Positions 4,506 to 48,742 of a DNA stretch of 64,000 nucleotides are shown piece after piece (position 1 is the stretch's first letter; every line of letters starts with the position of its first letter). The notes below the pieces were generated by a model. That model did not search any database and was not told the DNA's origin. It was given only the letters and a program-made list of their open reading frames with translations. Source of the stretch: a virus; the IMG/VR virus record IMGVR_UViG_3300034071_001657, one strand, 5' to 3'. The position numbers and the translations under genes were made by a program.

Positions 4506-7500
4506 TGGCCACTTCTTTGTATGCAGACGCGCCTGAGTATGTGCCTGCTGGGTTGACGTTAATTGTCATAAACTCTGTATTTGAAATACCTGTAATAATA
4601 AACTTTTCACTTCCTACTATCAGACTACTATTATTCGAATAGTCTGATGTAAAACTTGTTCCAGTTCCTATCACACTGTTACCAGAAATAGTGATGGTTC
4701 CAGAAATTTTTACATTCTTTGTTACTGACTTTTGACCAAACTCCGATTCGAATGTTTTATTTTGCTCGTCTTGAATCGGCCTATTAGCCAAAGTTGCAAT
4801 TGTTGTGTCTCCGTAAGTTATTGTATTATTTCTAAATGGATTAAAATCTTGTACCTTAGCTAAAGAAGCAATTTCAGATTCTACTTTATTTATTCCCACA
4901 AAATTTTGTTCTGAGAATAAATTTATATCCGTTGGTATTTTATTGACATATTCCGCGGATATAGAAGAACTTAGATTTTCAAAGAGAGGTATATTTAAAA
5001 TCAATTCTCTTGATTGATATGGATATAGTATAATATCATCTAATACAATTTCAACAACTGTTTCTAGAACTTTAACTTGACTTTCCCATGTTGTGGTAGC
5101 ATCAACATATATTTCTAATATATTTACTCGCTCAGTGATTGTTTGTATAATTTCTGAAACAGGAAGAAGTTCAAATCTTAAGATAGTTTCTCTGTGATAT
5201 TGCGTCGATTTAGCTGGTTCTGGTATAATATCAATTTCATATTTTATAAAATTATTTGTTTCTACATTAGTTTCTAACTGAAATTTGTTAACATATTCAG
5301 AATCGGTATTTAAGGTTTCTGCTAAAAATTCAGATGGAAATTCAATTCGAAGTTCTTTAAACTCATCTGATTGAAGATTGGTTTCAAGTTCAATTATAGC
5401 AACGGTTTCGTTGATTTCAATTTGCCCAGTTACATCCGAATAGAGATGCACTTTGTTGACGTATTCAGCATCTGTGGACAGAATTTGCGAACCGGCTTCT
5501 GAAAATACATTAAGTTTAAATTCAGAATATTCAACCGTGACAAGATTTGTCTGCAATTCAAGTTTATTTACTACTTCAGAAGTATCAAATTGTAAACCTA
5601 AATTAGATTGATTTTTTACCGAGACAATATATTCGGCGTCTAGAGATAATGATTCTGGTACAATCGCCGGAGCAATTTTAACTTGAAGTTCTTTGAAATC
5701 ATTAATTTGAAGATTTGTTCCATCTAGAATAACTTCAAGTTCAATCTTAGTGGCAGACTCAACGACTTGAATTTGACTATACCAAGCGGTAGTTAAATCC
5801 AAATATAGTTCTAGTCTATTTACATATTCGGCGTCTAGAGATAATGATTCTGGTACAATCGCCGGAGCAATTTTAACTTGAAGTTCTCTATTATTGGCAA
5901 TCTGAAGATTTGTTCCATCTAGAATAACTTCCAGTTCAATCTTAGTCGCAGACTCAACGACTTGAATTTGACTATACCAAGCAGTGGTCAGGTCAAAATA
6001 TAACTCTAATCTGTTTACATATTCGGCATCTAGGGATATTGAACCAGGTAATATCGACGGAGAAATTTCTATTTGAATTTCTCTATCATTAGACAACATT
6101 TCTACCGATATTGGTAAGTCAATTCCAACTTCAAGTTCAGTTACAGGATTAACCGAAACGTTTTCGTCTAAAATAACCTCTATTTTATAATTAGAAAAAT
6201 CATTTACGATGCTTAAATTTCGTTTCTGTAAGTTAATATCAACTTCAACAGTCTTTGGCACAAAGTTGGACGTTACTACGGCGGGACTAACGTAAATTTC
6301 TAGTTCGCTAAATCTTCTAACAATAGATTCGATATTTTGAACCGAGGCATCAACATATAACTCAAGTATATTGACAAAATTTGCAGCAGGTATAATTGTT
6401 AATGTGACCTGTAATTCTGTAGGTCGAGTTACAACCATTTCTGTAGATTTTTCTACTACAGAATTAGCTATGTAAATTGGTACAACATTACCTCTAAACT
6501 CTGCACCAACTGGATTGGCCGAGCTTCCCCAAATTCTGTATCGTTTATAAACACTTTGAATTGGTTCAGAGACTCCGATGGGCACAAGGGAAGAAATTGC
6601 AGACGGAAAGTCAATGATGGTAAATGCAGTTGGACTTAATCCGCCAATGATAGATTGAATAGAAATTTCACCGAAGAATTCTAATCCAGCAGGATGGACT
6701 AATTCCTTAACTAATGAATCATATCGATTTAATGTTAAAGCACTCTTAATTACGTATGAAAAATCTTGGTAAAATAATGAATCTTGAATAACTCGATAAT
6801 CAATTTTCCCATCGTCATTGATAAATCTTCCAGATGAAATACCTGTTCCAGAAATAACAGCAGTAAGATTTGCATTTCCATCGCCTGATATTGTTGCATC
6901 AATTGAAACACTGCTGTAGTCAATACCAAAATCAGAAATCTCTACGGCTCGAATAGAACCAATACCTACAGAATTATTTGCAACGTCTACCTCAACATTT
7001 GCAGAATTTCCTTGTATGTCTTCAACTGTAAATTGTGCATTGGTTCCAGTTCCAGAAGTTACTGAAATTGATACAGAAGATAAATTTGCAGTCGAGTAAC
7101 CAAATCCAAATCCTGATGCGACATTAGAAGAATCATACAATTCTATTCGTAAAATAGGGCCATTATTCGTCCAGTCTTCGCCCTTTAATGCACTCGATTT
7201 TCCATTAATCGTTGTTTCTTGAATGAGAACAAAAGAGTCTTCAAACAAAATATTATTTGCACCATATGGCTCAGTATTACCAACTGATGCTACGACACCA
7301 TTCGCAGAAGTTGTCGGAGAGCCTCCAGAAAATACTAACGAATCTCCAACAGAATAGTTGTTTCCAGAATCATCAATTGTAATTAAATTTTCATGAAGAC
7401 TTCCAAGATTTTTAACTGTACTGTCAATTAAAGTTACAGTAGGAACAGAAGAGTATCCCGATCCTCTGTTTAAAATAGATACTTTTGAAATTTCTCCGAC

Positions 7501-8622
7501 ATTATATTGATTAAAGCCACCGCCGCCTACTGGTTGAAGTATCGTATAAGTATTTGCAAGTTCCGTTACTTTAATGTAAAGTCCAGAACCTCCAGTACCC
7601 GCATTATTTACGGTCGCAAGTGTTCCTAATCTGTATCCATAACCAATGTTATTAACTTTGATTTTATTGATCGGACCATCGCTAACAGAAGAAACCGATG
7701 CCGAAGCCTCAAAGCCATCTCCAGAAATAGCTAATGAATCGCCAACATTATAACCCGAACCACCATCATTAATAATAACTGAAGTTAACATTCCATATGT
7801 CGTGGTGTTCGCAACTTCAGTATTGTTGACTGCAAAAATTGTTTCGTCTGCGGAAAATGTTCCCGAAACTAGACTGAGTGTAAATTCTGCGAATTGAATT
7901 CCACCAAGAAAAGTTAATTTAATATCAACAACATTACCTACCGCGCCACTTGTTGCTCCACGAATTGTTTCATTTAAAAATCCAAAAATATCATCATTTG
8001 CAACGACTCTGAGAACAATCGTCTTTTCAAATTTTCCATCAGAAACTCTTAGTAATTCTTCTCCAGGATATCTAAATTCAATATTTTCTCCGAATACTGT
8101 TCTGAATAAAAATCTGTAAGCCTCTTCGGTGCTTTTTGATTCGTATAAATTTCTAAGTTTTGCGACTAATTGCCGCCTATCGGTTTCAGTTTCTGTCGGA
8201 TATTGATTATTAAATTCCGATTTCAAATACTCTAGATATTTTCCAGACGCAAATTCTGGAATTTTATTTCGTAATAAATTTGCAGCATGTTTTAAAACAT
8301 TATCTTTTATGTCATTTAAAGATGCAGTCGCGCTTGATATTTGACCAGTTAAAGTTTCTTTTAAATCAAAAGTCTTTAATGAAGTTGCCTTTACAATGAT
8401 TGCGTCATCTTTGATAAGTCTTACTATACCTCTAGCGCCTGAGGTGGATCCGATTACAATTTCATCTTTCTGAAAAGTTCCAGAAACAGAAGATATGGAA
8501 AGTTCAGTGGTTTGTAACCATTCGTAATATAATTCTAGAAAAACTAGAAATGCTTCGTCATCTAAAACTGGAGAAATATTCTCCAGTAAAAAATTTGGAT
8601 TTAAATAAACTGCATTTGACAT
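4501..8622 (-). CDS. Baseplate wedge protein gp7-like with long repetitive C-terminal extension
   Basis: Lies between gp6 and gp8; FLELYYEWL, IQDSLFYQDFSYVIKS and LVHPAGLEFFGE motifs. Confidence 0.75.
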   Translation of the reverse strand: MSNAVYLNPNFLLENISPVLDDEAFLVFLELYYEWLQTTELSISSVSGTFQKDEIVIGSTSGARGIVRLIKDDAIIVKATSLKTFDLKETLTGQISSATASLNDIKDNVLKHAANLLRNKIPEFASGKYLEYLKSEFNNQYPTETETDRRQLVAKLRNLYESKSTEEAYRFLFRTVFGENIEFRYPGEELLRVSDGKFEKTIVLRVVANDDIFGFLNETIRGATSGAVGNVVDIKLTFLGGIQFAEFTLSLVSGTFSADETIFAVNNTEVANTTTYGMLTSVIINDGGSGYNVGDSLAISGDGFEASASVSSVSDGPINKIKVNNIGYGYRLGTLATVNNAGTGGSGLYIKVTELANTYTILQPVGGGGFNQYNVGEISKVSILNRGSGYSSVPTVTLIDSTVKNLGSLHENLITIDDSGNNYSVGDSLVFSGGSPTTSANGVVASVGNTEPYGANNILFEDSFVLIQETTINGKSSALKGEDWTNNGPILRIELYDSSNVASGFGFGYSTANLSSVSISVTSGTGTNAQFTVEDIQGNSANVEVDVANNSVGIGSIRAVEISDFGIDYSSVSIDATISGDGNANLTAVISGTGISSGRFINDDGKIDYRVIQDSLFYQDFSYVIKSALTLNRYDSLVKELVHPAGLEFFGEISIQSIIGGLSPTAFTIIDFPSAISSLVPIGVSEPIQSVYKRYRIWGSSANPVGAEFRGNVVPIYIANSVVEKSTEMVVTRPTELQVTLTIIPAANFVNILELYVDASVQNIESIVRRFSELEIYVSPAVVTSNFVPKTVEVDINLQKRNLSIVNDFSNYKIEVILDENVSVNPVTELEVGIDLPISVEMLSNDREIQIEISPSILPGSISLDAEYVNRLELYFDLTTAWYSQIQVVESATKIELEVILDGTNLQIANNRELQVKIAPAIVPESLSLDAEYVNRLELYLDLTTAWYSQIQVVESATKIELEVILDGTNLQINDFKELQVKIAPAIVPESLSLDAEYIVSVKNQSNLGLQFDTSEVVNKLELQTNLVTVEYSEFKLNVFSEAGSQILSTDAEYVNKVHLYSDVTGQIEINETVAIIELETNLQSDEFKELRIEFPSEFLAETLNTDSEYVNKFQLETNVETNNFIKYEIDIIPEPAKSTQYHRETILRFELLPVSEIIQTITERVNILEIYVDATTTWESQVKVLETVVEIVLDDIILYPYQSRELILNIPLFENLSSSISAEYVNKIPTDINLFSEQNFVGINKVESEIASLAKVQDFNPFRNNTITYGDTTIATLANRPIQDEQNKTFESEFGQKSVTKNVKISGTITISGNSVIGTGTSFTSDYSNNSSLIVGSEKFIITGISNTEFMTINVNPAGTYSGASAYKEVAI
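5628..6040 (-). repeat. Internal 195-nt (65-aa) tandem repeat in the gp7-like gene
   Basis: attcggc(g/a)tctag recurs at 5631, 5826 and 6021; peptide SLDAEYVNRLELY.DLTTAWYSQIQVVESATKIELEVILDGTNLQI is duplicated. Confidence 0.9.
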
Positions 8623-8623
8623 G

Positions 8624-10447
8624 TTATCTTCTGACTAAACTTATTTGTGTATCATCTTGTAAACTAATATCAATATCTGAATCTCGTATTGAAAGAATTT
8701 GACCTCTTAATGGTAATACATCTAAATTGGATGGATTTGCATTTATTTTTAACGTAACGCCACCATCAGCAAAGGCGGTTGGATTGAATGAATTTAAAAT
8801 AATTCTACCCGTCGAATAATTTATAGTACCGGTGTTCTGTGATACGCCAATGTTCGATGCACCAACTGCTCGATATATTCTTATAATTCCATTGTTATCT
8901 TCTAAAAAGCAATTTGAGAATCCGTTATATGTAAATGCGTTCGACGTTATCTGATTTCCAACACCATATGGATGCGAAGTTGGTCGACCAACAGTTCCAG
9001 AATTGATTGGATTTGAAAAGTTTAATACATAACGACTCGGAGAACCCAATTGAATATCGGTTTCTTTTCGTAAAACAACTCTCATTATAGTATTTAATAT
9101 TGATCTTTCGCAAGTGTCAACTAATCTAGAAAGTTTTGAATATCTGAAATAACGTGAGAATTGATTAATTTCATTGTCATTATAATTTTTAATTATATTG
9201 AAAATTTTTGATTCTAAACTGTCTTCATTTAAAATTGTTTGTGCTGGATCGTAGTTAACTGTCACGTTCAGCAATAGATAGATGAATTCTGGATCGACGA
9301 TTTCGGTAGAAACTGTTAAAACTTTTTTCGGTTTTAATATAGTATTAATAATGGATTGCTTTTCAGTTGCAGTCAGAGCAGTTCCTGTTGTTGGTTTGAT
9401 AGCGATATAAACTTTTCCGTATGCCGGAGGATCATTATCTTCCCCGCCCCAAACGGTAACCGATCCAACATTTGATTCTTTCAACAATATGGCAGTATAA
9501 TCTTCTGCCGTAACGGCTCTATTTTGTGCTGAAAAAGCTTTTGGTGCAGTAAACTTTATTCTATCAATAGAGTCTCTATCATCACCACCCGCCGATGGCG
9601 AGTTTGGTGTAAAATCAATCGTTGTTACATTTGTAATTGTAGATGCATATGTCAAACTACGAATGTTGTTTGCCGATTTTCCAGATGACACAAGATATTC
9701 AAGATAAATTACGTTTCCGTTTGTCGGAGCCAGGCCCAGTATGCCATCACCAAATTTTACTTGATATTTACCATCCTCAATTTCTTCTAAGAAATATACC
9801 AATGAAGTTGAGCTAAGTTCTACAAAATTATCAGCGAGAGTAAAAACTCTCGTTGTATCATCAGACGTTGAATTTAAAACTCGTACGGATAAAGTCGATG
9901 TGTCGGCTAATTCATTATTGATAATGAATCTCTGATCTTTATCGGAAGTATTTACAACATAACGTTCGCTTGCAAAGACGCCTTCAACTAACGTTATATC
10001 TTCTGCAATATATTCTGAATTTGCATTTGCAAAAATCGTCACACCAGTTTCAGTCAAAAACGTATATGATTGTCCATCCAATGATGCAGAAAATTTAGTG
10101 TATTTCGGAAGAGTGTATGATGCAGTATTTGCAGAAACTGTTAATTCTACGGTTCCAGTAATTCTGGATGACGTTGTTGATCTTGGAGTATAGTTTAAAG
10201 TTTTTGCCAAATTTACAACAGAATTTCTTTGCTGTGCTGTGGCTAAAGATGTCTCAGTAGACATCATGTTCAGATAAAAAGAATTGTAATATGTGTTATA
10301 TGCTAAAACGTCTAACAGAACCGCTAGACCAGAACCTTCAAAATTATAATCTTTAAACTGATCTTGATTAGATAAAAACTGTTTTAGATTATCTCTAATT
10401 TGTTCATATGCTAATCCATCTACTTTTAAATTTGTTGGTGTGGCCAT
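8624..10447 (-). CDS. gp6: Baseplate wedge subunit gp6
   Basis: FKDYNFEGSGLAVLLDVLAYNTYYN, AQNRAVTAEDY and WGGEDNDPPAYGKVYI motifs. Confidence 0.95.
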   Translation of the reverse strand: MATPTNLKVDGLAYEQIRDNLKQFLSNQDQFKDYNFEGSGLAVLLDVLAYNTYYNSFYLNMMSTETSLATAQQRNSVVNLAKTLNYTPRSTTSSRITGTVELTVSANTASYTLPKYTKFSASLDGQSYTFLTETGVTIFANANSEYIAEDITLVEGVFASERYVVNTSDKDQRFIINNELADTSTLSVRVLNSTSDDTTRVFTLADNFVELSSTSLVYFLEEIEDGKYQVKFGDGILGLAPTNGNVIYLEYLVSSGKSANNIRSLTYASTITNVTTIDFTPNSPSAGGDDRDSIDRIKFTAPKAFSAQNRAVTAEDYTAILLKESNVGSVTVWGGEDNDPPAYGKVYIAIKPTTGTALTATEKQSIINTILKPKKVLTVSTEIVDPEFIYLLLNVTVNYDPAQTILNEDSLESKIFNIIKNYNDNEINQFSRYFRYSKLSRLVDTCERSILNTIMRVVLRKETDIQLGSPSRYVLNFSNPINSGTVGRPTSHPYGVGNQITSNAFTYNGFSNCFLEDNNGIIRIYRAVGASNIGVSQNTGTINYSTGRIILNSFNPTAFADGGVTLKINANPSNLDVLPLRGQILSIRDSDIDISLQDDTQISLVRR

Positions 10448-19160: not shown

Positions 19161-22100
19161 ATGGCAAATCTATCAGAAGCACTAGCATCAAAAATAACAG
19201 GATCGATAAAAGGCGCCGCCGGCAATTTCTTAGGCGGGGTTAAGGGGTCATTTATTGGCGCCAACCCCGCCGTCTTTGGTCCCATGGTTGCAGGACTTCA
19301 AAAAGCTTTTGAATCTCAAACTAAAGAAATAAAAAAAGATAGAGAAGAACGTAAGAGAGAAAAAGCTTTTGATGAAGAAAAAAACAATGAACAGAAAAAA
19401 TTGTTCACTGACATTCTAGGTCAACTAAAAGAGATCAATGACACTCTTAAAAATTTATTGAAAGCTTTCACCAGCAAAGATAAAAATCCTTGGAAAGAAA
19501 TGCTTACTGCTTTGATAGCGATGTTTGGAAAATTTTTAGAAGACTTGGATAAAAAATTAGGAAAATTTATATCTTTTTTAGATGAGATGTTCAAAAGTCT
19601 AAAAAATACGTTAGAAAATATAGGTAAACTATTATCAAGTCTTTTTGAGAAGTTAAAGGGTCTGTTAGAAAGACTTCCGAATTTAGATGATATATTTAAA
19701 GGACTAAAATTTTCTTTTGATGACATCTTAAGAGGATTGAAACTATTCTTTGAAGACTTCAAAAACATTTTCAAAAATGTTTTCAAAGATTTAAAAACTC
19801 CTAAGTTTTTAGAAGATATATTTAAAGGATTAAAATCTTCCTTTGAAGATATTTTGCGCGGGTTCAAATCGTTTTTTGAAAATTTCAAAAATGTTTTCAA
19901 AAAAGGCATAGAAGATTTAGGTAAATTTTTAAGAATTGATGATCTAGCCGATGCATTCAGAAAATTTAAAAACAATTTTCTTGTGAATATGGCGGTGATT
20001 GGCGATCAACTCGATGAACTCGGAAAATCAGTTAAGGGAAAATTTTCAGCACTTACTGATATTTTCAAATCTAGATTAGATGATGTAATAAAAATAGTTT
20101 CAGAGTCTAAGATAGGTCGAACGGTAGCTAATTTATTTGAAGAAATTGCTAAAGCTATCTCTCAAATAGGAACGGTTAAGACTACGGTTCCAGAAATCAA
20201 GCTTCCTGAAATTAAAGTTGTCATGCCTGAAAAGGTGCCGACTATAGAATTTAATCTGAAGGATTTTTCAAAGTTAGAAGCTCCAATGATTACGTCATCA
20301 GAAATACGAATTGGTGAAATTGATGTAGCAAAGTTAGAGACTTCAAAAATGACAGCCGCCGAAGGTGGACGCGCGGCGCCAGCCGCCGCTGGTGTTGAAG
20401 ATGCCATAAAAGCCGCAACCGGCGCAGATGCAGTAAAAGGAACTGCTGTAGTAGGTGACATTGCAAAAACGGCCGGCCCTATGGCAAGAATTCTTGAAAT
20501 GTTTTCTTCAATTGGAAAATCAATAGGTTCTTCACTCAAATTTATAGCAGACATAAGCGACTTCGATGTTATTGTCAAAAAAGTTTTAGCAATAGCAAAA
20601 CCTCTCGGCGCAATTATTGGTGTTTTTGACGGCATGTCGAATGCACTCTTTAATGATAAAAATCTAAAATCTGTATTAGGTAAAACAGAGGGACAAGAAC
20701 TGACAATTGCAGACAGGCTAGCGGCGTTTGCTGGAGGATTTTTAGGAAGCGTTTTTGGTATAATTGATTTATTATTAGACTTAATGGACATCGATTTAGG
20801 TCAAGAAGTCGGTGAAGATATGATGGGTAATATGATGGGCGGTAAAAAGAGAACCGTTCAGGGAATGGTAACCGACTTTTTGACCAAGAATATATCAGTA
20901 GTGTTCAATGCATTAAAATCAATGCTAGTATTTTTTGGACAAGTATTAACTTCAGAACCTGCCATGGCACTTTATACTAAAGTCGGTGAAGTTGTTGATG
21001 CCGTTATGAAAGGTTTCGGTAAATTCATTGATTTCATGAAAGACTTTCTCTTCAGCGACACGATGATGAAGGTTTATGATGTTTTATTGGCTGGTCTGAA
21101 AACAACTGGACAAAACGCGGCTGCCGCGTTTATGGGAGTTCTTGATATTATTATAGGAATAATAACTTTCGACACTGCAAAAATGATGAAAAGTGTCGGC
21201 TCAGTACAAGATGCTGTTGTTGCACAGGTTAAAAATTTGGCGGGTGCTTTTGTTGACATCACCAAACTAATGTTTGGATTTATTGAGGACGGGGTTAATT
21301 GGCTCATAAATCAGTTACCTCCAGTGTTCCGTCCAAAAACGCCATTTGATTTAACTGGTAGATATAGAATGACTGCTCAAGATTATGAAGACTCTGATCT
21401 TGGCGCCGCGATGATGAGAAACGCGAGTAATGCTAGAAACACGGCTCGCGCTGTTTCCGCAGTGACAGGAACAAATCCTATCGTGGGCGACTTTGCCGCG
21501 ATAGATGCGGCATACAATACTCTTTATGGTAAGACCCGAAACAACCCCAACCTATATAAAGGAAATGCACCAGGTAAAGTCCTTTTTGAGCAGGAACTTG
21601 AAAAAGCTGTTAAAAATGGAACTTTCACATCACTAGAAGCGTTCAGTGAACAATTTAGATATATTTTTGCTCAAGGTGGAGCAGACGCTTTTCGTATAAA
21701 CAGATCACCTTCTCCCATGGAGTTATGGGGGCAAAATGCTCAATATAGTAAAGACCAATATTTCTTAAGTAGAGATTACTACAGAAACGATGAGTCTTAC
21801 AGACAGGAGAGGGCGCAGTTACAAGACCAGTTTAACAATAACATGATTCAGATGTATAGACAGGCCTTTTCAAAGATGGTTGGTCCGATGGGATTTGGTG
21901 GACAAACATCTAGGGCTGGATATAACATTGCTAATCAGCCTGGAATTGTCGAAGGATTTATTCGTGGGGGAACTAAAATATTTGGTGACCAAATGGGCGC
22001 ACCAATGGCGTACATATTTAATAATCTTGCAGGAAATTACTTAGATCAATTCATCAATAATACAATGGCTCCCGCATTAGGAATGAAGGCTGGACAATTG

Positions 22101-27332: not shown

Positions 27333-28037
27333 CTACCTAGAAACGCCTTCTTCGGTATGATAGCAAGTTTTTTTTCTTACAAGTATACTTTTATACTCAG
27401 AAGATTTAATGGCCTTTGATATTCTTCGCCACATATCAATGTCAGCTTCTAAAACTTCTCCTGTCTCTTCAAAAACATCTCTATACCTTAGAGGTAGCAA
27501 CTTGTGATTAATACACACTGATGAGTGTGCAACATTTACTGGTTCTGGACATCTCTCTTCATATTTATCATCTAATTTTACGCCTGGAATATATTGATTT
27601 TTTAAGTATTGTGCGCAAGTGTACACCAGTGCCACATTGCTTACGGTGTTGATGATGTTGACGATTTCACTTAAATGATTTTCACTCCAGTAATCATCAT
27701 GGTCTAAATGACAAATCCAATCAAGACCATCATCTAAAGCTTTTTGCAGCCCATGATTATATGCATTTACGCCACCAGAAACCCACAGTTTTCTATCATC
27801 TATTGAATATTTGTCTCTTTCTTTTGCGATTGGTAGATTTTCAAGATAGTGCTCGATGCCAGTCAAAGATTCTGAGAATCTATTAAATTCTTCATCGTCT
27901 TCGTACTTATCTCCAATCAAAAAAAATTTAAAATTCTTGTATGTCTGTTTTTTCAAAGAGTCTATAGCGCGATTGAGATAAGTTGGCGTTTTACCATCTT
28001 TTCTTTGATACGTTGGTGTTACAATTGCAAGCTTCAT
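27333..28037 (-). CDS. Glycosyltransferase family 2
   Basis: IVTPTY, N-x-GL and HLDHDDYW (DxDD) motifs. Confidence 0.85.
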   Translation of the reverse strand: MKLAIVTPTYQRKDGKTPTYLNRAIDSLKKQTYKNFKFFLIGDKYEDDEEFNRFSESLTGIEHYLENLPIAKERDKYSIDDRKLWVSGGVNAYNHGLQKALDDGLDWICHLDHDDYWSENHLSEIVNIINTVSNVALVYTCAQYLKNQYIPGVKLDDKYEERCPEPVNVAHSSVCINHKLLPLRYRDVFEETGEVLEADIDMWRRISKAIKSSEYKSILVRKKTCYHTEEGVSR

Positions 28038-28654
28038 TTTTGTTTAATGATAAAGCAATTTCCGTCAAGAAAATTTGAATCAAACCCTCTTGCGTTCAAG
28101 GTGTTCTTTAGTGTTCCAATGATTTCAAATTCGGAAGAATGTTTATCGCATAAAAAATTGACTGCCGACTTCACTTCAGGAGAATGTACCCAATCGTTGT
28201 AGTCATCAAAGACAAGGTAGCCACCTTGCTTCAGATACTTTGAGTAGATTTCGAAATCTTTTAACACACCATCATATGAATGATCTCCATCGATGAAAAT
28301 TATGTCATACGTTGAATCTAGATTGTCATAAGTAGATTTTACTTGTGAGTTTCCTTCAATGTACTGATATAGATTGTTGTGCTTGTTTAGCTTGGCAACA
28401 TTTTCCATAACAGTCTTTTTGGGTATTGGATGACCTAAATCGATTGAAGTGACTGAGGTGTTTTCTCGCTGTAGCATCAGACAAGCGGACCCTCCAGCAT
28501 AACACCCAATCTCAAGATATTGCAGGGCATAATCTCTAGGAAAAGTTTTTGCAATATCATAGAGAACATGATAATGATGATGAAAAGTTTTTTCTTCGAT
28601 AGACTTGCTGATTGCCGTGAGCAAGTCTAAAGATTCTTGTGTCGAAACAATCAT
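28034..28654 (-). CDS. Class I SAM-dependent methyltransferase (Methyltransf_24-like)
   Basis: YLEIGCYAGGS, DIIFIDGDHSY and GGYLVFDDY motifs. Confidence 0.9.
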   Translation of the reverse strand: MIVSTQESLDLLTAISKSIEEKTFHHHYHVLYDIAKTFPRDYALQYLEIGCYAGGSACLMLQRENTSVTSIDLGHPIPKKTVMENVAKLNKHNNLYQYIEGNSQVKSTYDNLDSTYDIIFIDGDHSYDGVLKDFEIYSKYLKQGGYLVFDDYNDWVHSPEVKSAVNFLCDKHSSEFEIIGTLKNTLNARGFDSNFLDGNCFIIKQK

Positions 28655-29274
28655 GTTTTTGGGGCTTTGGGTGATGCTGGATTACCAATCAGTAAACAAG
28701 GTTCATCGATGCTTTTCCAAACAACTGCACCTGCACCTACTTTAGTGTTGTCAGGAAGATTCACTTTTGGAACAACATAAGAGCCAATACCAAAAACACA
28801 CGAATGTCCAATATTACAATCGCCGCAGACTTCGGTATTTGGAAAAAGAGTTGTATAATCACCGATAGTGGAATCATGGCCCACAGTTGCATTGCTATTC
28901 ATAAAAACATAATCACCAATTACACAATCTCCTGCCAACAAAACAAGCGGAGCAAAAACACCACCTTTGCCTAATTTAGCGAAAGGTGAAATTGTCGCAG
29001 AAGAATGAATAAAATTCGTCCAACGATCTTCGTTTTTTTCGACAATAATTTTCTTAACTTTAGGATCAGCAACTGCTAAGATAAATTTAGCTTCTGGAAA
29101 TTCCCCAGGAAGAAGTTCAGACCTAACGGGAAACATCTCATTGTATACTGGATTGTTAAATGGTTCGGTACTCACTACAGCACAGATTCCATGATTGAAT
29201 CCGTACATTTCGATCAAGTACCCGATAACTTCTTTAGCAAGCCCACCAGAACCAAATATTACATACTTATTCAT
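28651..29274 (-). CDS. Sugar N/O-acetyltransferase, PglD/NeuD-like
   Basis: IFGSGGLAKE Rossmann start, hexapeptide repeats, VGHD and GNPA motifs. Confidence 0.9.
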   Translation of the reverse strand: MNKYVIFGSGGLAKEVIGYLIEMYGFNHGICAVVSTEPFNNPVYNEMFPVRSELLPGEFPEAKFILAVADPKVKKIIVEKNEDRWTNFIHSSATISPFAKLGKGGVFAPLVLLAGDCVIGDYVFMNSNATVGHDSTIGDYTTLFPNTEVCGDCNIGHSCVFGIGSYVVPKVNLPDNTKVGAGAVVWKSIDEPCLLIGNPASPKAPKT

Positions 29275-29900
29275 GTGTTGTACACCTCAAATTTGCTTAG
29301 ATCAGGATATGGAAGTTCTAAATCTTCATTGTGTTTTTTTGTACCGTCTAAATTATAAAACTGATTCATCAAAAGCAATCCTCTTGTGGCTAATTCTGGC
29401 ATCATGTAAAAGTTCCATCCAAGCATATCAAAATAATCATCATGATAAGAGCACTCTCTGCGACCACTATATCGTGCTCTTTTAAACCATAGATATGCAT
29501 CATGGTTATCTGTGAGAATAGCACCACCCTTCGATAGCTTGAAATGCTTGTATGGTCCGGTGAATGAAATACACATATGAGAACCAGGAATGTACATGTC
29601 GGCAGTGAATCGTAATGCACTGTCCCACACATTTGATGGTGTGAGTTGATATGCACCTTTGATTGTTCTACCTTTTACATGATGAAACTTCACCTTTGCT
29701 CCTGCATGAATAATTTCACAGGGAACGCTAGGGTAAGTTCTGCATGGAATTGTAATCTCTTTGCCTGTCACTTTTTCATATGTCAGTGCCAGAAAGAGTG
29801 CATTGCTTTGATTGTCTACTGTCACAACATACGGTGCACCAGTGTAATCAGAGAGTGCCTTTTCAAAATCTTCTGTTACTTTATAAATTCCATTAGCCAA
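29271..29900 (-). CDS. DegT/DnrJ/EryC1/StrS sugar aminotransferase, short form
   Basis: SNALFLAL, SFTGPYKHF..SKGGAILTD and GWNFYM motifs; TTG start with AGGAGG SD. Confidence 0.85.
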   Translation of the reverse strand: MANGIYKVTEDFEKALSDYTGAPYVVTVDNQSNALFLALTYEKVTGKEITIPCRTYPSVPCEIIHAGAKVKFHHVKGRTIKGAYQLTPSNVWDSALRFTADMYIPGSHMCISFTGPYKHFKLSKGGAILTDNHDAYLWFKRARYSGRRECSYHDDYFDMLGWNFYMMPELATRGLLLMNQFYNLDGTKKHNEDLELPYPDLSKFEVYNT

Positions 29901-29924
29901 GTTTACCTCCTACATAAAATTAAA

Positions 29925-30274
29925 TTGTGGGTTATTCTGTTACGAGGAAACCCACCGAAACCCTAGGCTGTGTTTAAGCAGCCAATGCGAAACGTTCTTC
30001 GTTTGCGTTTACTTTGATTTACTTTTAACGACTCTCTGTGTCGGACCGTCCGTATCTCTATTACTTGCCCTGTCGAAACCAGGTCAGGCCCATCAGAAAA
30101 CTCTCTGCGATACTTGAAATCATGGTAGCCCTTCTTCCTAGCAGGTCCTTGCTTTGGTCGACTTTAGCAAGTTTTTCTGTTTATCTAGTGTAGCTACTCA
30201 AAGAGTTTTCTGGTGGACCTGGGCGGAATCGAACCGCCGTCCAGAACACCTTTCGATCAACATCATACGATCAT
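29925..30274 (-). ncRNA. ssrA: Two-piece (circularly permuted) tmRNA gene; tag ANEERFALAA
   Basis: Acceptor piece ~30274-30211 ends GGCGGTTCGATTCCGCCCAGGTCCACCA; intervening segment 30210-30092; coding piece starts GGGCCTGACCTGGTTTCGAC at 30091 (G3-U70 pair); tag ORF 30006-29974. The 3' end coordinate is approximate. Confidence 0.93.
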
Positions 30275-30280
30275 TTCATT

Positions 30281-30309
30281 AGTATACTATATATCAAAAC
30301 TTTTGTCTA
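30281..30309 (-). promoter_or_regulatory. Sigma70-type promoter for the tmRNA
   Basis: TAGACA-17-TATACT immediately upstream of the acceptor piece. Confidence 0.7.
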
Positions 30310-48417: not shown

Positions 48418-48742
48418 CCATATTGAAACACACTCAACATTACACCCTTGATTCGCTGCTGCTACTAGGGGCGGGTTCTAATGTGTTTCAATATGGTCCG
48501 AGACTCGAACTCGGCATGTAAGCGGCTTCGCAATCGGGTAGCGCAATTTCCCTAGCACTGACTAACACAGGTTAATTAAGCCCGCTCTCATCAGTGAAGC
48601 CTACACAGCTTCCTGCACCATATTGAAACACACTTGAGGTAACCGTGACAAGCGGGGGCTTTTTACACCTCTCTACCTGCGTGCTCACCAGACAGTCACT
48701 TCTGTTCTAAGGACGCTTTCGATTTAGTGTGCTTCAGTATGG
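48418..48742 (-). ncRNA. Unclassified structured RNA block with four copies of a 15-16 nt stem and an orphan T-arm-ACCA
   Basis: CCATATTGAAACACA or its complement at 48418, 48482, 48618 and 48727; CCGAG-TTCGAGT-CTCGG-ACCA at 48514-48494. Confidence 0.7.

Follow-up and report, generated by a model that had tools for sequence, protein, structure and literature searches.

An uncultured T4-like myovirus of lake water carries a circularly permuted ssrA gene that is probably a working one, made and used as the proposed two-piece tmRNA. The gene lies on the minus strand of a 64,000-nt stretch of viral DNA (IMG/VR record IMGVR_UViG_3300034071_001657), here called the window, to which all coordinates refer. 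We established its identity, the selection acting on its structure and tag throughout its family, its conserved synteny and the absence of smpB. A preliminary description made from the sequence alone had proposed a phage-borne, circularly permuted tmRNA with a betaproteobacterial-type tag. A permuted gene, of the beta_tmRNA type, was borne out by ARAGORN, by two Rfam models and by signs of selection across the family.

The ARAGORN and Rfam covariance-model searches suggested in that description were carried out, and both were positive, with Rfam scores above the cut-offs. ARAGORN reported a permuted tmRNA (tmRNA*) at 29883-30303 with the tag ANEERFALAA. Rfam model RF01850 (beta_tmRNA) matched over its full length with 140.3 bits (E 8e-43, cut-off 84), and RF04321 (tmRNA_permuted) matched over its full length (1-213) with 127.4 bits (E 1.5e-24, cut-off 47). 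The agreement between these methods is far beyond chance. Bacterial members of beta_tmRNA score 169-299 bits, compared to 140.3 bits for the phage gene. The terminal terminator hairpin of the beta_tmRNA model (positions about 307-328) was wholly deleted in the phage gene, and in the Rfam alignment the distal inter-piece helix lacked two model pairs and contained some non-canonical pairs. The 4-bp PK1 hairpin modelled by Rfam was present and covarying; the second stem of this pseudoknot could not be identified.

Minus-strand positions 30330-29900 were inspected for tmRNA elements, and the promoter, acceptor half, intervening segment, 5′ half and tag that had been described were all found where they had been placed. 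The order is swapped relative to a one-piece gene, with the T-arm, the acceptor 3′ strand and CCA (to 30211) located upstream of G1 (30091) on the same strand. The acceptor piece (30211-30272, about 62 nt, with a predicted 5′ end) was delimited from the Rfam alignment and ARAGORN. It contains the 5′ strand of the inter-piece helix (GAUCG, 30272-30268), a helix-2a strand (UGUUCUG, 30248-30242), the T-arm (GGCGG-UUCGAUU-CCGCC, 30238-30222), the acceptor 3′ strand (CAGGUCC, 30221-30215), and A73 followed by an encoded CCA (ACCA, 30214-30211). A spacer of exactly 119 nt (30210-30092) follows, which is proposed to be removed when the two pieces mature. The coding piece (29927-30091, with a predicted 3′ end) starts at G1 with the acceptor 5′ strand GGGCCUG (30091-30085), which is followed by ACCUGGUUUCGAC. 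A D-loop analogue (ACCUGGUUUCGA, 30084-30073) precedes the other helix-2a strand (CAGGGCA, 30072-30066), and CGGUC (30048-30044) is the partner of GAUCG in the inter-piece helix. Next come the PK1 hairpin (CGAC/GUCG, 30043-30040 with 30032-30029) and the tag frame (29974-30006), which has the resume codon GCA at 30006-30004, encodes ANEERFALAA and ends at a UAA stop codon (29976-29974). This stop codon is situated in the loop of helix 5 (GGCUG 29983-29979 with CAGCC 29970-29966), and the piece ends with a 3′ hairpin (GUGGGUU/AACCCAC, 29955-29949 with 29933-29927). The acceptor stem consists of 7 bp with G3·U70 and A73, so that all of the alanine identity elements are present. The gene has every sequence feature needed for alanine charging and tagging.

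A sigma-70-like promoter (30281-30309) consists of TAGACA (30309-30304), a 17-nt spacer and TATACT (30286-30281), matches the consensus at 10 of 12 positions, and ends 8 nt ahead of the first base of the acceptor piece. As three such sites were found in the tmRNA region and 2.2 were expected, the promoter match alone is not significant and is no better than chance. A site with at least 10 of 12 matches was present at the same distance in 12 of 59 distinct relatives, several of which have a perfect TTGACA-17-TATAAT. In the remaining relatives an ORF reaches up to the tmRNA gene, which is probably co-transcribed with it. Downstream of the 3′ hairpin there is an A/U-rich tail (29912-29926) that is a weak terminator at best, and a terminator scan of the tmRNA region found none. 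The next gene begins with a GGAGG ribosome-binding site (29909-29905) and a TTG start codon (29900).

Contigs from one river metatranscriptome (X24) covered only 29922-30242 of the 2001 bases around the gene and nothing on the flanking genes; the uncovered parts prove nothing by themselves. A 186-nt RNA contig with two mismatches spans the spacer and corresponds to the unprocessed precursor form, and a contig from a relative extends 248 nt past the A/U-rich tail. These contigs are no more than a hint of precursor transcription, since contigs do not reveal where RNAs end and DNA may be present in an RNA library.

The structure was compared among 60-66 distinct low-GC viral copies. Pairs G1-C72, G2-C71 and G3·U70 were invariant in all 66 copies, and two-sided (compensatory) changes were observed at acceptor pairs 4-5, T-stem pairs 2-3 and helix-2a pairs 1-2. 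Free folding with RNAalifold of 60 joined acceptor and coding sequences recovered helix 2a, the T-arm, the acceptor stem and the PK1 hairpin. In this set 97.8% of the cells were able to pair, compared to 48-53% when the 3′ partners were slid by 1-3 columns. The PK1 hairpin and the 3′ hairpin each had 4-5 pair types per position (65 copies), and the stop codon was unpaired within a hairpin in 36 of 58 relatives. Among 40 distinct ten-codon tags, synonymous codons were found for Ala1 (three), Asn2 (two), Leu8 (five), Ala9 (three) and Ala10 (three), while Asp3 varied as well. The conserved residues vary mainly at synonymous sites, a pattern that implies translation of the tag frame.

The window encodes T4-type baseplate wedge proteins, gp32, gp59, gp33, PhoH and a PD-(D/E)XK nuclease, together with 24 tRNA genes. 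By protein comparison, the nearest cultured phages were Pelagibacter phage HTVC008M (gp6 39.7% identical), Mosig and Methylophilales phage Melnitz. The relationship to HTVC008M and Melnitz is distant; for Melnitz the identity is 37% for gp6 and 58% for gp32. A megablast search with 12 kb found no close deposited phage at the DNA level, and blastn of the tmRNA gene against deposited phages yielded only a 78-nt match in Xanthomonas phage BUDD. One further IMG/VR contig (L014) is about 99% identical and represents the same phage. The 2-kb region with the tmRNA gene at its centre was found in 23 DNA runs labelled lake water or freshwater metagenome, which identifies the source as a lake phage.

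An exact scan of IMG/VR with a 24-nt motif of the 5′ half returned 109 loci. ARAGORN called 98 permuted tmRNA genes in these loci, 90 of them on contigs below 50% GC, so that there are at least 90 low-GC carriers. The neighbours found in the window were kept in 75 of the 90 low-GC loci, all on one strand and in the common order DNA-binding protein, PhoH, PD-(D/E)XK nuclease, tmRNA, endolysin-like gene, gp59 and gp32. In the window a small gp33 gene separates the endolysin-like gene from gp59, and gp33 was also identified in Melnitz; the count for the relatives covers the other genes. The arrangement is old, because the neighbouring proteins are only 30-60% identical among the relatives. A large group of lake T4-like phages carries the beta-type two-piece ssrA as a standard component in conserved synteny.

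The corresponding order in Melnitz is PhoH, PDDEXK nuclease, two small genes, SsrA, late-transcription coactivator, helicase loader, thyX and ssDNA-binding protein. As this neighbour order matches, a published phage ssrA is found in the position that the gene has in the window. In HTVC008M, whose record opens with the helicase loader gp59, the permuted tmRNA is about 1.9 kb ahead of that gene and probably in the same slot. We also considered whether the slot is common to cyanophages. This idea was rejected; the permuted tmRNA genes of S-CRM01 and S-SSM7 are located elsewhere and S-CREM1 has none.

A cassette of four genes for sugar modification was observed between the tmRNA gene and the endolysin-like gene (27333-29900, minus strand). 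It consists of a DegT-type aminotransferase fragment, a hexapeptide transferase, a methyltransferase and a family-2 glycosyltransferase, and among the 90 related loci it was present only in L014, which is the same phage.

The preliminary remark that annotation often misses the permuted form agrees with several deposited genomes. In S-SSM7 (NC_015287.1) a tmRNA_permuted match of 78.5 bits at 21008-21227 coincides with a CDS labelled as a hypothetical protein (SSSM7_025). S-CRM01 (NC_015569.1) has an unannotated match of 82.5 bits at 88361-88533, beside tRNA-Leu and tRNA-Met. Xanthomonas phage BUDD (ON758385.1) has an unannotated permuted tmRNA locus at 2275-2732 that is overlapped by a 'hypothetical protein' CDS. 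The BUDD copy scores 77.5 bits with RF04321 and 55 bits with beta_tmRNA, which is under the cut-off; its tag is VAANDADYSVARYA, its spacer is 127 nt long and its host is a Xanthomonas. A permuted tmRNA of this type is likewise found in phage X1 (OQ427096.1). Pipelines still label such genes as hypothetical proteins.

Beta-type genes are also carried by bacteria. Among the genome matches listed, the bacterial holders were Azonexus/Dechloromonas, Thauera, Accumulibacter, Georgfuchsia and Rhodocyclaceae MAGs, all with DNA of 53-70% GC. When 151 genomes were sampled evenly from the order to which Accumulibacter belongs, 4 passed the beta_tmRNA cut-off; one of the remaining genomes, G031, had no beta_tmRNA match above the cut-off. 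Three small genomes (G070, G185 and G186; 1.7-2.3 Mb, 36-44% local GC) have permuted tmRNA genes scoring 160-169 bits, with an encoded CCA and clamp-closed spacers of 30-33 nt. They belong to one large family of this order, in which the other 38 genomes sampled were without a permuted tmRNA. One of the three is among the 4 of 151 and the two others are further members of its family. Cupriavidus sp. amp6 has two beta_tmRNA genes above the cut-off (C126:81-440 and C45:48775-49106; 281 and 251 bits). One of these two copies is situated on a 7.8-kb contig; it shares 82% identity with the core of the window's gene and has the phage-style GGGCCUG stem, ACCA and clamp. This copy may be on a mobile element.

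A maximum-likelihood tree of 103 distinct cores placed the window's gene in an all-viral clade of 36 rows (94/95 support). In the same unrooted tree the bacterial genes fell into two or three groups among other viral rows. Viral copies shared 80-93% identity with the core of the window's gene; the value was 82% for the Cupriavidus contig, 71-76% for bacterial genes and 62-63% for Melnitz and HTVC008M. The window's gene is thus not nested within the ssrA genes of one bacterial lineage, as its clade is all-viral and its nearest sequences are viral. As an AU test did not reject a single bacterial clan (p 0.39) and the tree is unrooted, the data are compatible with transfer in either direction.

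The permuted tmRNA had initially been taken as a clue to the host, and ANDERFALAA-like tags had been described as betaproteobacterial. Tags of the AND(E)xxALAA type are not confined to that class, as ARAGORN matched tags of the relatives to Photobacterium and other genera. The host argument did not hold in other respects either. The nearest relatives are all viral, at higher core identity than any bacterium, and the gene is an old, syntenic part of the phage lineage. The Melnitz copy in the same slot is of the alpha type despite an OM43 host (PMC9004378), Xanthomonas phage BUDD carries a beta-like copy that mismatches its host, and only 4 of the 151 genomes sampled from Accumulibacter's order have the form. 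From these data we conclude that tmRNA type is a poor host clue, and caution that it is not a safe guide to the host of a phage.

A broader possibility is that the beta-type two-piece tmRNA is at root a phage family. The slot would have been kept by the HTVC008M/Melnitz group since before the split between marine and freshwater phages, the alpha and beta forms would have drifted or been exchanged, and scattered bacteria would have received their genes from phages. The recipients would be the Rhodocyclales, a few low-GC Burkholderiales with small genomes and one Cupriavidus genome with its extra copies, and they would have replaced or supplemented a standard ssrA. We consider this history unlikely. 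If true, it would call into question independent permutations inside bacteria as the source of the bacterial two-piece lineages.

Adjoining the acceptor stem is a helix, here called the clamp, that is built from the two spacer ends plus C75 and A76. In the window the clamp is 14 bp long (30212-30199 with 30094-30107), leaving AU (30093-30092) unpaired before G1, with a folding energy of −46.4 kcal/mol (z −4.5) for the whole unit. Among 66 copies, 12 successive clamp pairs were 91-100% canonical, with 4-6 pair types at positions 6-12, and GAU directly preceded G1 in 58. This clamp and the UGAU leader recur in Melnitz, HTVC008M and Xanthomonas phage BUDD. The acceptor piece ends in ACCA in 84 of the 90 low-GC viral copies.

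The interior of the spacer behaved differently. Low-GC viral spacers were mostly 59-186 nt long with a median of about 70 nt (119 nt here), compared to 3-43 nt for the bacterial beta-type genes in our sample, and 82 spacers fell into 46 unrelated clusters. The inner spacer was no more structured than shuffled sequence, with a z of −0.49 in the window and a median z of −0.14 among 55 spacers (5% below −2). Phage spacers inside the clamp look mostly unconstrained. The window and a relative with the same spacer (L018) differ by a few compensatory changes in inner stems, and local structure in this particular spacer is possible. No second copy of the window's spacer was found in the window, where the comparison took in the small-RNA cassettes at 48418-48742, or in the other loci. 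A 20-codon ORF (MISSIAESFLMGLTWFRQGK, 30123-30061, minus strand) with an SD-like AGGAAGAAGGG upstream crosses G1 into the tRNA-like domain, and its AUG start codon is GUG in L018. This ORF probably occurs by chance, because its conservation follows the RNA elements of the clamp and the tRNA-like domain. Two candidate roles of the spacer were rejected: that of a structured small RNA, as the inner parts fold like shuffled sequence, and that of a protein gene, as the junction-crossing ORF is the only one present.

These results bear on a dual-use precursor, in which tmRNA maturation would set free the clamp-closed spacer as a product in its own right (a small RNA or a mini-ORF). The retention of long spacers (up to 186 nt) in phages, their replacement by unrelated sequences as in a swappable slot, the compensatory changes between the window and L018, and the ORF with its SD-like AGGAAGAAGGG are all consistent with such a product. 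However, the folding of inner spacers like shuffled sequence, the lack of any match to the window's spacer in the window or the loci, and the conservation of the ORF only where RNA elements are conserved, with its start changed from AUG to GUG, make this explanation distinctly unlikely.

Contigs in lake DNA runs X8 and X17 lead from 30095 or 30098 to 30211, thereby skipping 112-115 nt, and have other sequence in between. Depth on the conserved tmRNA parts increased about 30-fold in X8 and less than 2-fold in X17. Related phages with differing spacers appear to co-occur in the same lake samples.

We searched for smpB with tblastn using two bacterial SmpB proteins and found none in the window; none was found in five relatives rated 96-100% complete by CheckV. 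Because smpB is absent from the window and from these five complete relatives, host SmpB would be needed.

The preferred reading, a working two-piece tmRNA, suggests the following course of events. Transcription of a single precursor would start at an early-type promoter of the phage itself or result from read-through of the upstream nuclease gene. The 3′ end of the acceptor piece and the 5′ end of the coding piece would fold into an alanine-type tRNA-like domain, while the 12-14 bp clamp would close the 119-nt spacer, stack on the acceptor stem and keep C75-A76 paired. Host tRNA-processing enzymes may then excise the spacer, with RNase P acting at G1, an endonuclease cutting within the spacer and 3′ exonucleases trimming back to CCA. 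The product would be two RNAs joined by base pairing, charged by host AlaRS and delivered by host SmpB. Stalled ribosomes would accept this tmRNA, resume translation on GCA and add the ANEERFALAA degradation tag. Processing at these sites by these enzymes, charging and tagging are our interpretation of the gene, as is ribosome rescue during infection. The likely benefit is that ribosomes would be kept free while host transcription is shut off and mRNAs are being cut, which fits the 24 tRNA genes of this phage. A tmRNA gene together with these tRNA genes would mean that the phage invests in keeping host ribosomes running. A clamp that hides the CCA end also provides a concrete, testable model for the maturation of a permuted stable-RNA precursor.

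A different function can be envisaged for the same RNA. The tRNA-like domain could mainly soak up host SmpB or AlaRS as a decoy and thereby shut down host trans-translation; in a phage family without smpB the RNA would compete for the host protein. There is a precedent of sorts, as a tmRNA consisting of the domain only has been reported in mycobacteriophage DS6A, and strong inhibition of tmRNA by a similar molecule, which may act by titrating SmpB, has been described (PMC4131195, PMC11915505). However, a decoy needs neither the resume codon nor the PK1 hairpin nor the helix with the stop codon in its loop, all of which are kept here, and the tag frame is intact, with 40 distinct tags that vary mostly at synonymous sites. 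We consider a decoy highly unlikely. The reading that the gene is a passenger or an artefact with no role in the phage (a recent host capture, an integration-site leftover or an assembly chimera) is close to refuted: although tmRNA genes are common integration sites with fragments found in prophages (PMC9004378) and a few high-GC IMG/VR contigs in the set look like Rhodocyclales DNA, this gene is complete, matches the phage in GC content, holds a fixed slot in 75 of 90 diverged relatives with neighbour proteins of such low identity, lies inside the all-viral clade of 36, has the same contig joins in many independent lake runs, and is flanked by genes that serve replication and recombination, with no integrase-family match among the flanking ORFs scanned.

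Phage tmRNAs have been listed since work on mycobacteriophages (PMC4131195). Buchholz et al. 2022 described the two-piece ssrA of Melnitz and, of 402 phage tmRNA genes, counted 53 that were called as permuted, 50 of these from aquatic phages (PMC9004378). The 2025 tmRNA database, which introduced RF04321, includes 79 phage sequences (PMC11915505); the supplement of that paper contains no family-level table. Permuted phage tmRNA genes are thus already published, and the gene in the window is a well-supported addition to them. In the literature searched we did not find the size and synteny of the freshwater beta-type group, the slot shared with marine alpha-type genes, or the covarying, CCA-containing clamp with long, free-running spacers.

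The closest published counterparts are in Melnitz, HTVC008M and Mosig (PMC9004378), T4-like myoviruses of the same wider group with gp6 proteins 37-40% identical and gp32 58% identical to those of the window. In Melnitz the permuted gene is in the same slot, after PhoH and the PD-(D/E)XK nuclease and before gp33, gp59 and gp32, and both Melnitz and HTVC008M share the long spacer, the clamp that contains CCA and UGAU before G1. However, the genes of all three phages fit alpha_tmRNA (106.7 bits for Melnitz) and have an odd T-loop and longer tags, whereas the gene in the window fits beta_tmRNA (140 bits), and the Melnitz and HTVC008M cores are only 62-63% identical to that of the window. These three phages are marine, whereas the window phage is from lakes. 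Melnitz also differs in having a glutamine riboswitch just after its ssrA; none was found in the window at Rfam cut-offs.

The bacterial beta-type two-piece tmRNA (RF01850; Sharkady and Williams 2004, as cited in PMC9004378) shares with the phage gene its gene order, tRNA-like domain, helix 2a and PK1 hairpin. An ANDE-type tag, a stop codon in helix 5, a conserved 3′ hairpin loop and a hairpin spacer are further likenesses. The bacterial genes in our sample differ in having spacers of 3-43 nt, a strong terminator and a CCA whose final A is often not encoded, whereas in the phage gene, which is 71-76% identical to them, the spacer is 119 nt long, CCA is encoded and the terminator hairpin is missing.

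Other phages that carry ssrA are, like this one, large, lytic and often rich in tRNA genes. Their tmRNAs are of the one-piece form in mycobacteriophages (Bxz1 group) and Bacillus phage G, and permuted in Caulobacter phiCbK-like phages and cyanophages (PMC4131195; Table S1 of PMC9004378). They differ from the gene in the window in form or type and in genome position, as in S-CRM01, where the gene is beside tRNA genes, and S-SSM7, where it is in another region. A 215-kb record classed as viral (IMGVR_UViG_2903405734_000002), which may be bacterial DNA or a large phage with both tmRNA and SmpB, was also observed to contain a standard one-piece tmRNA with the tag ANDESFAVAA and an SmpB gene 2.3 kb away (5807-6174 and 8488-8916).
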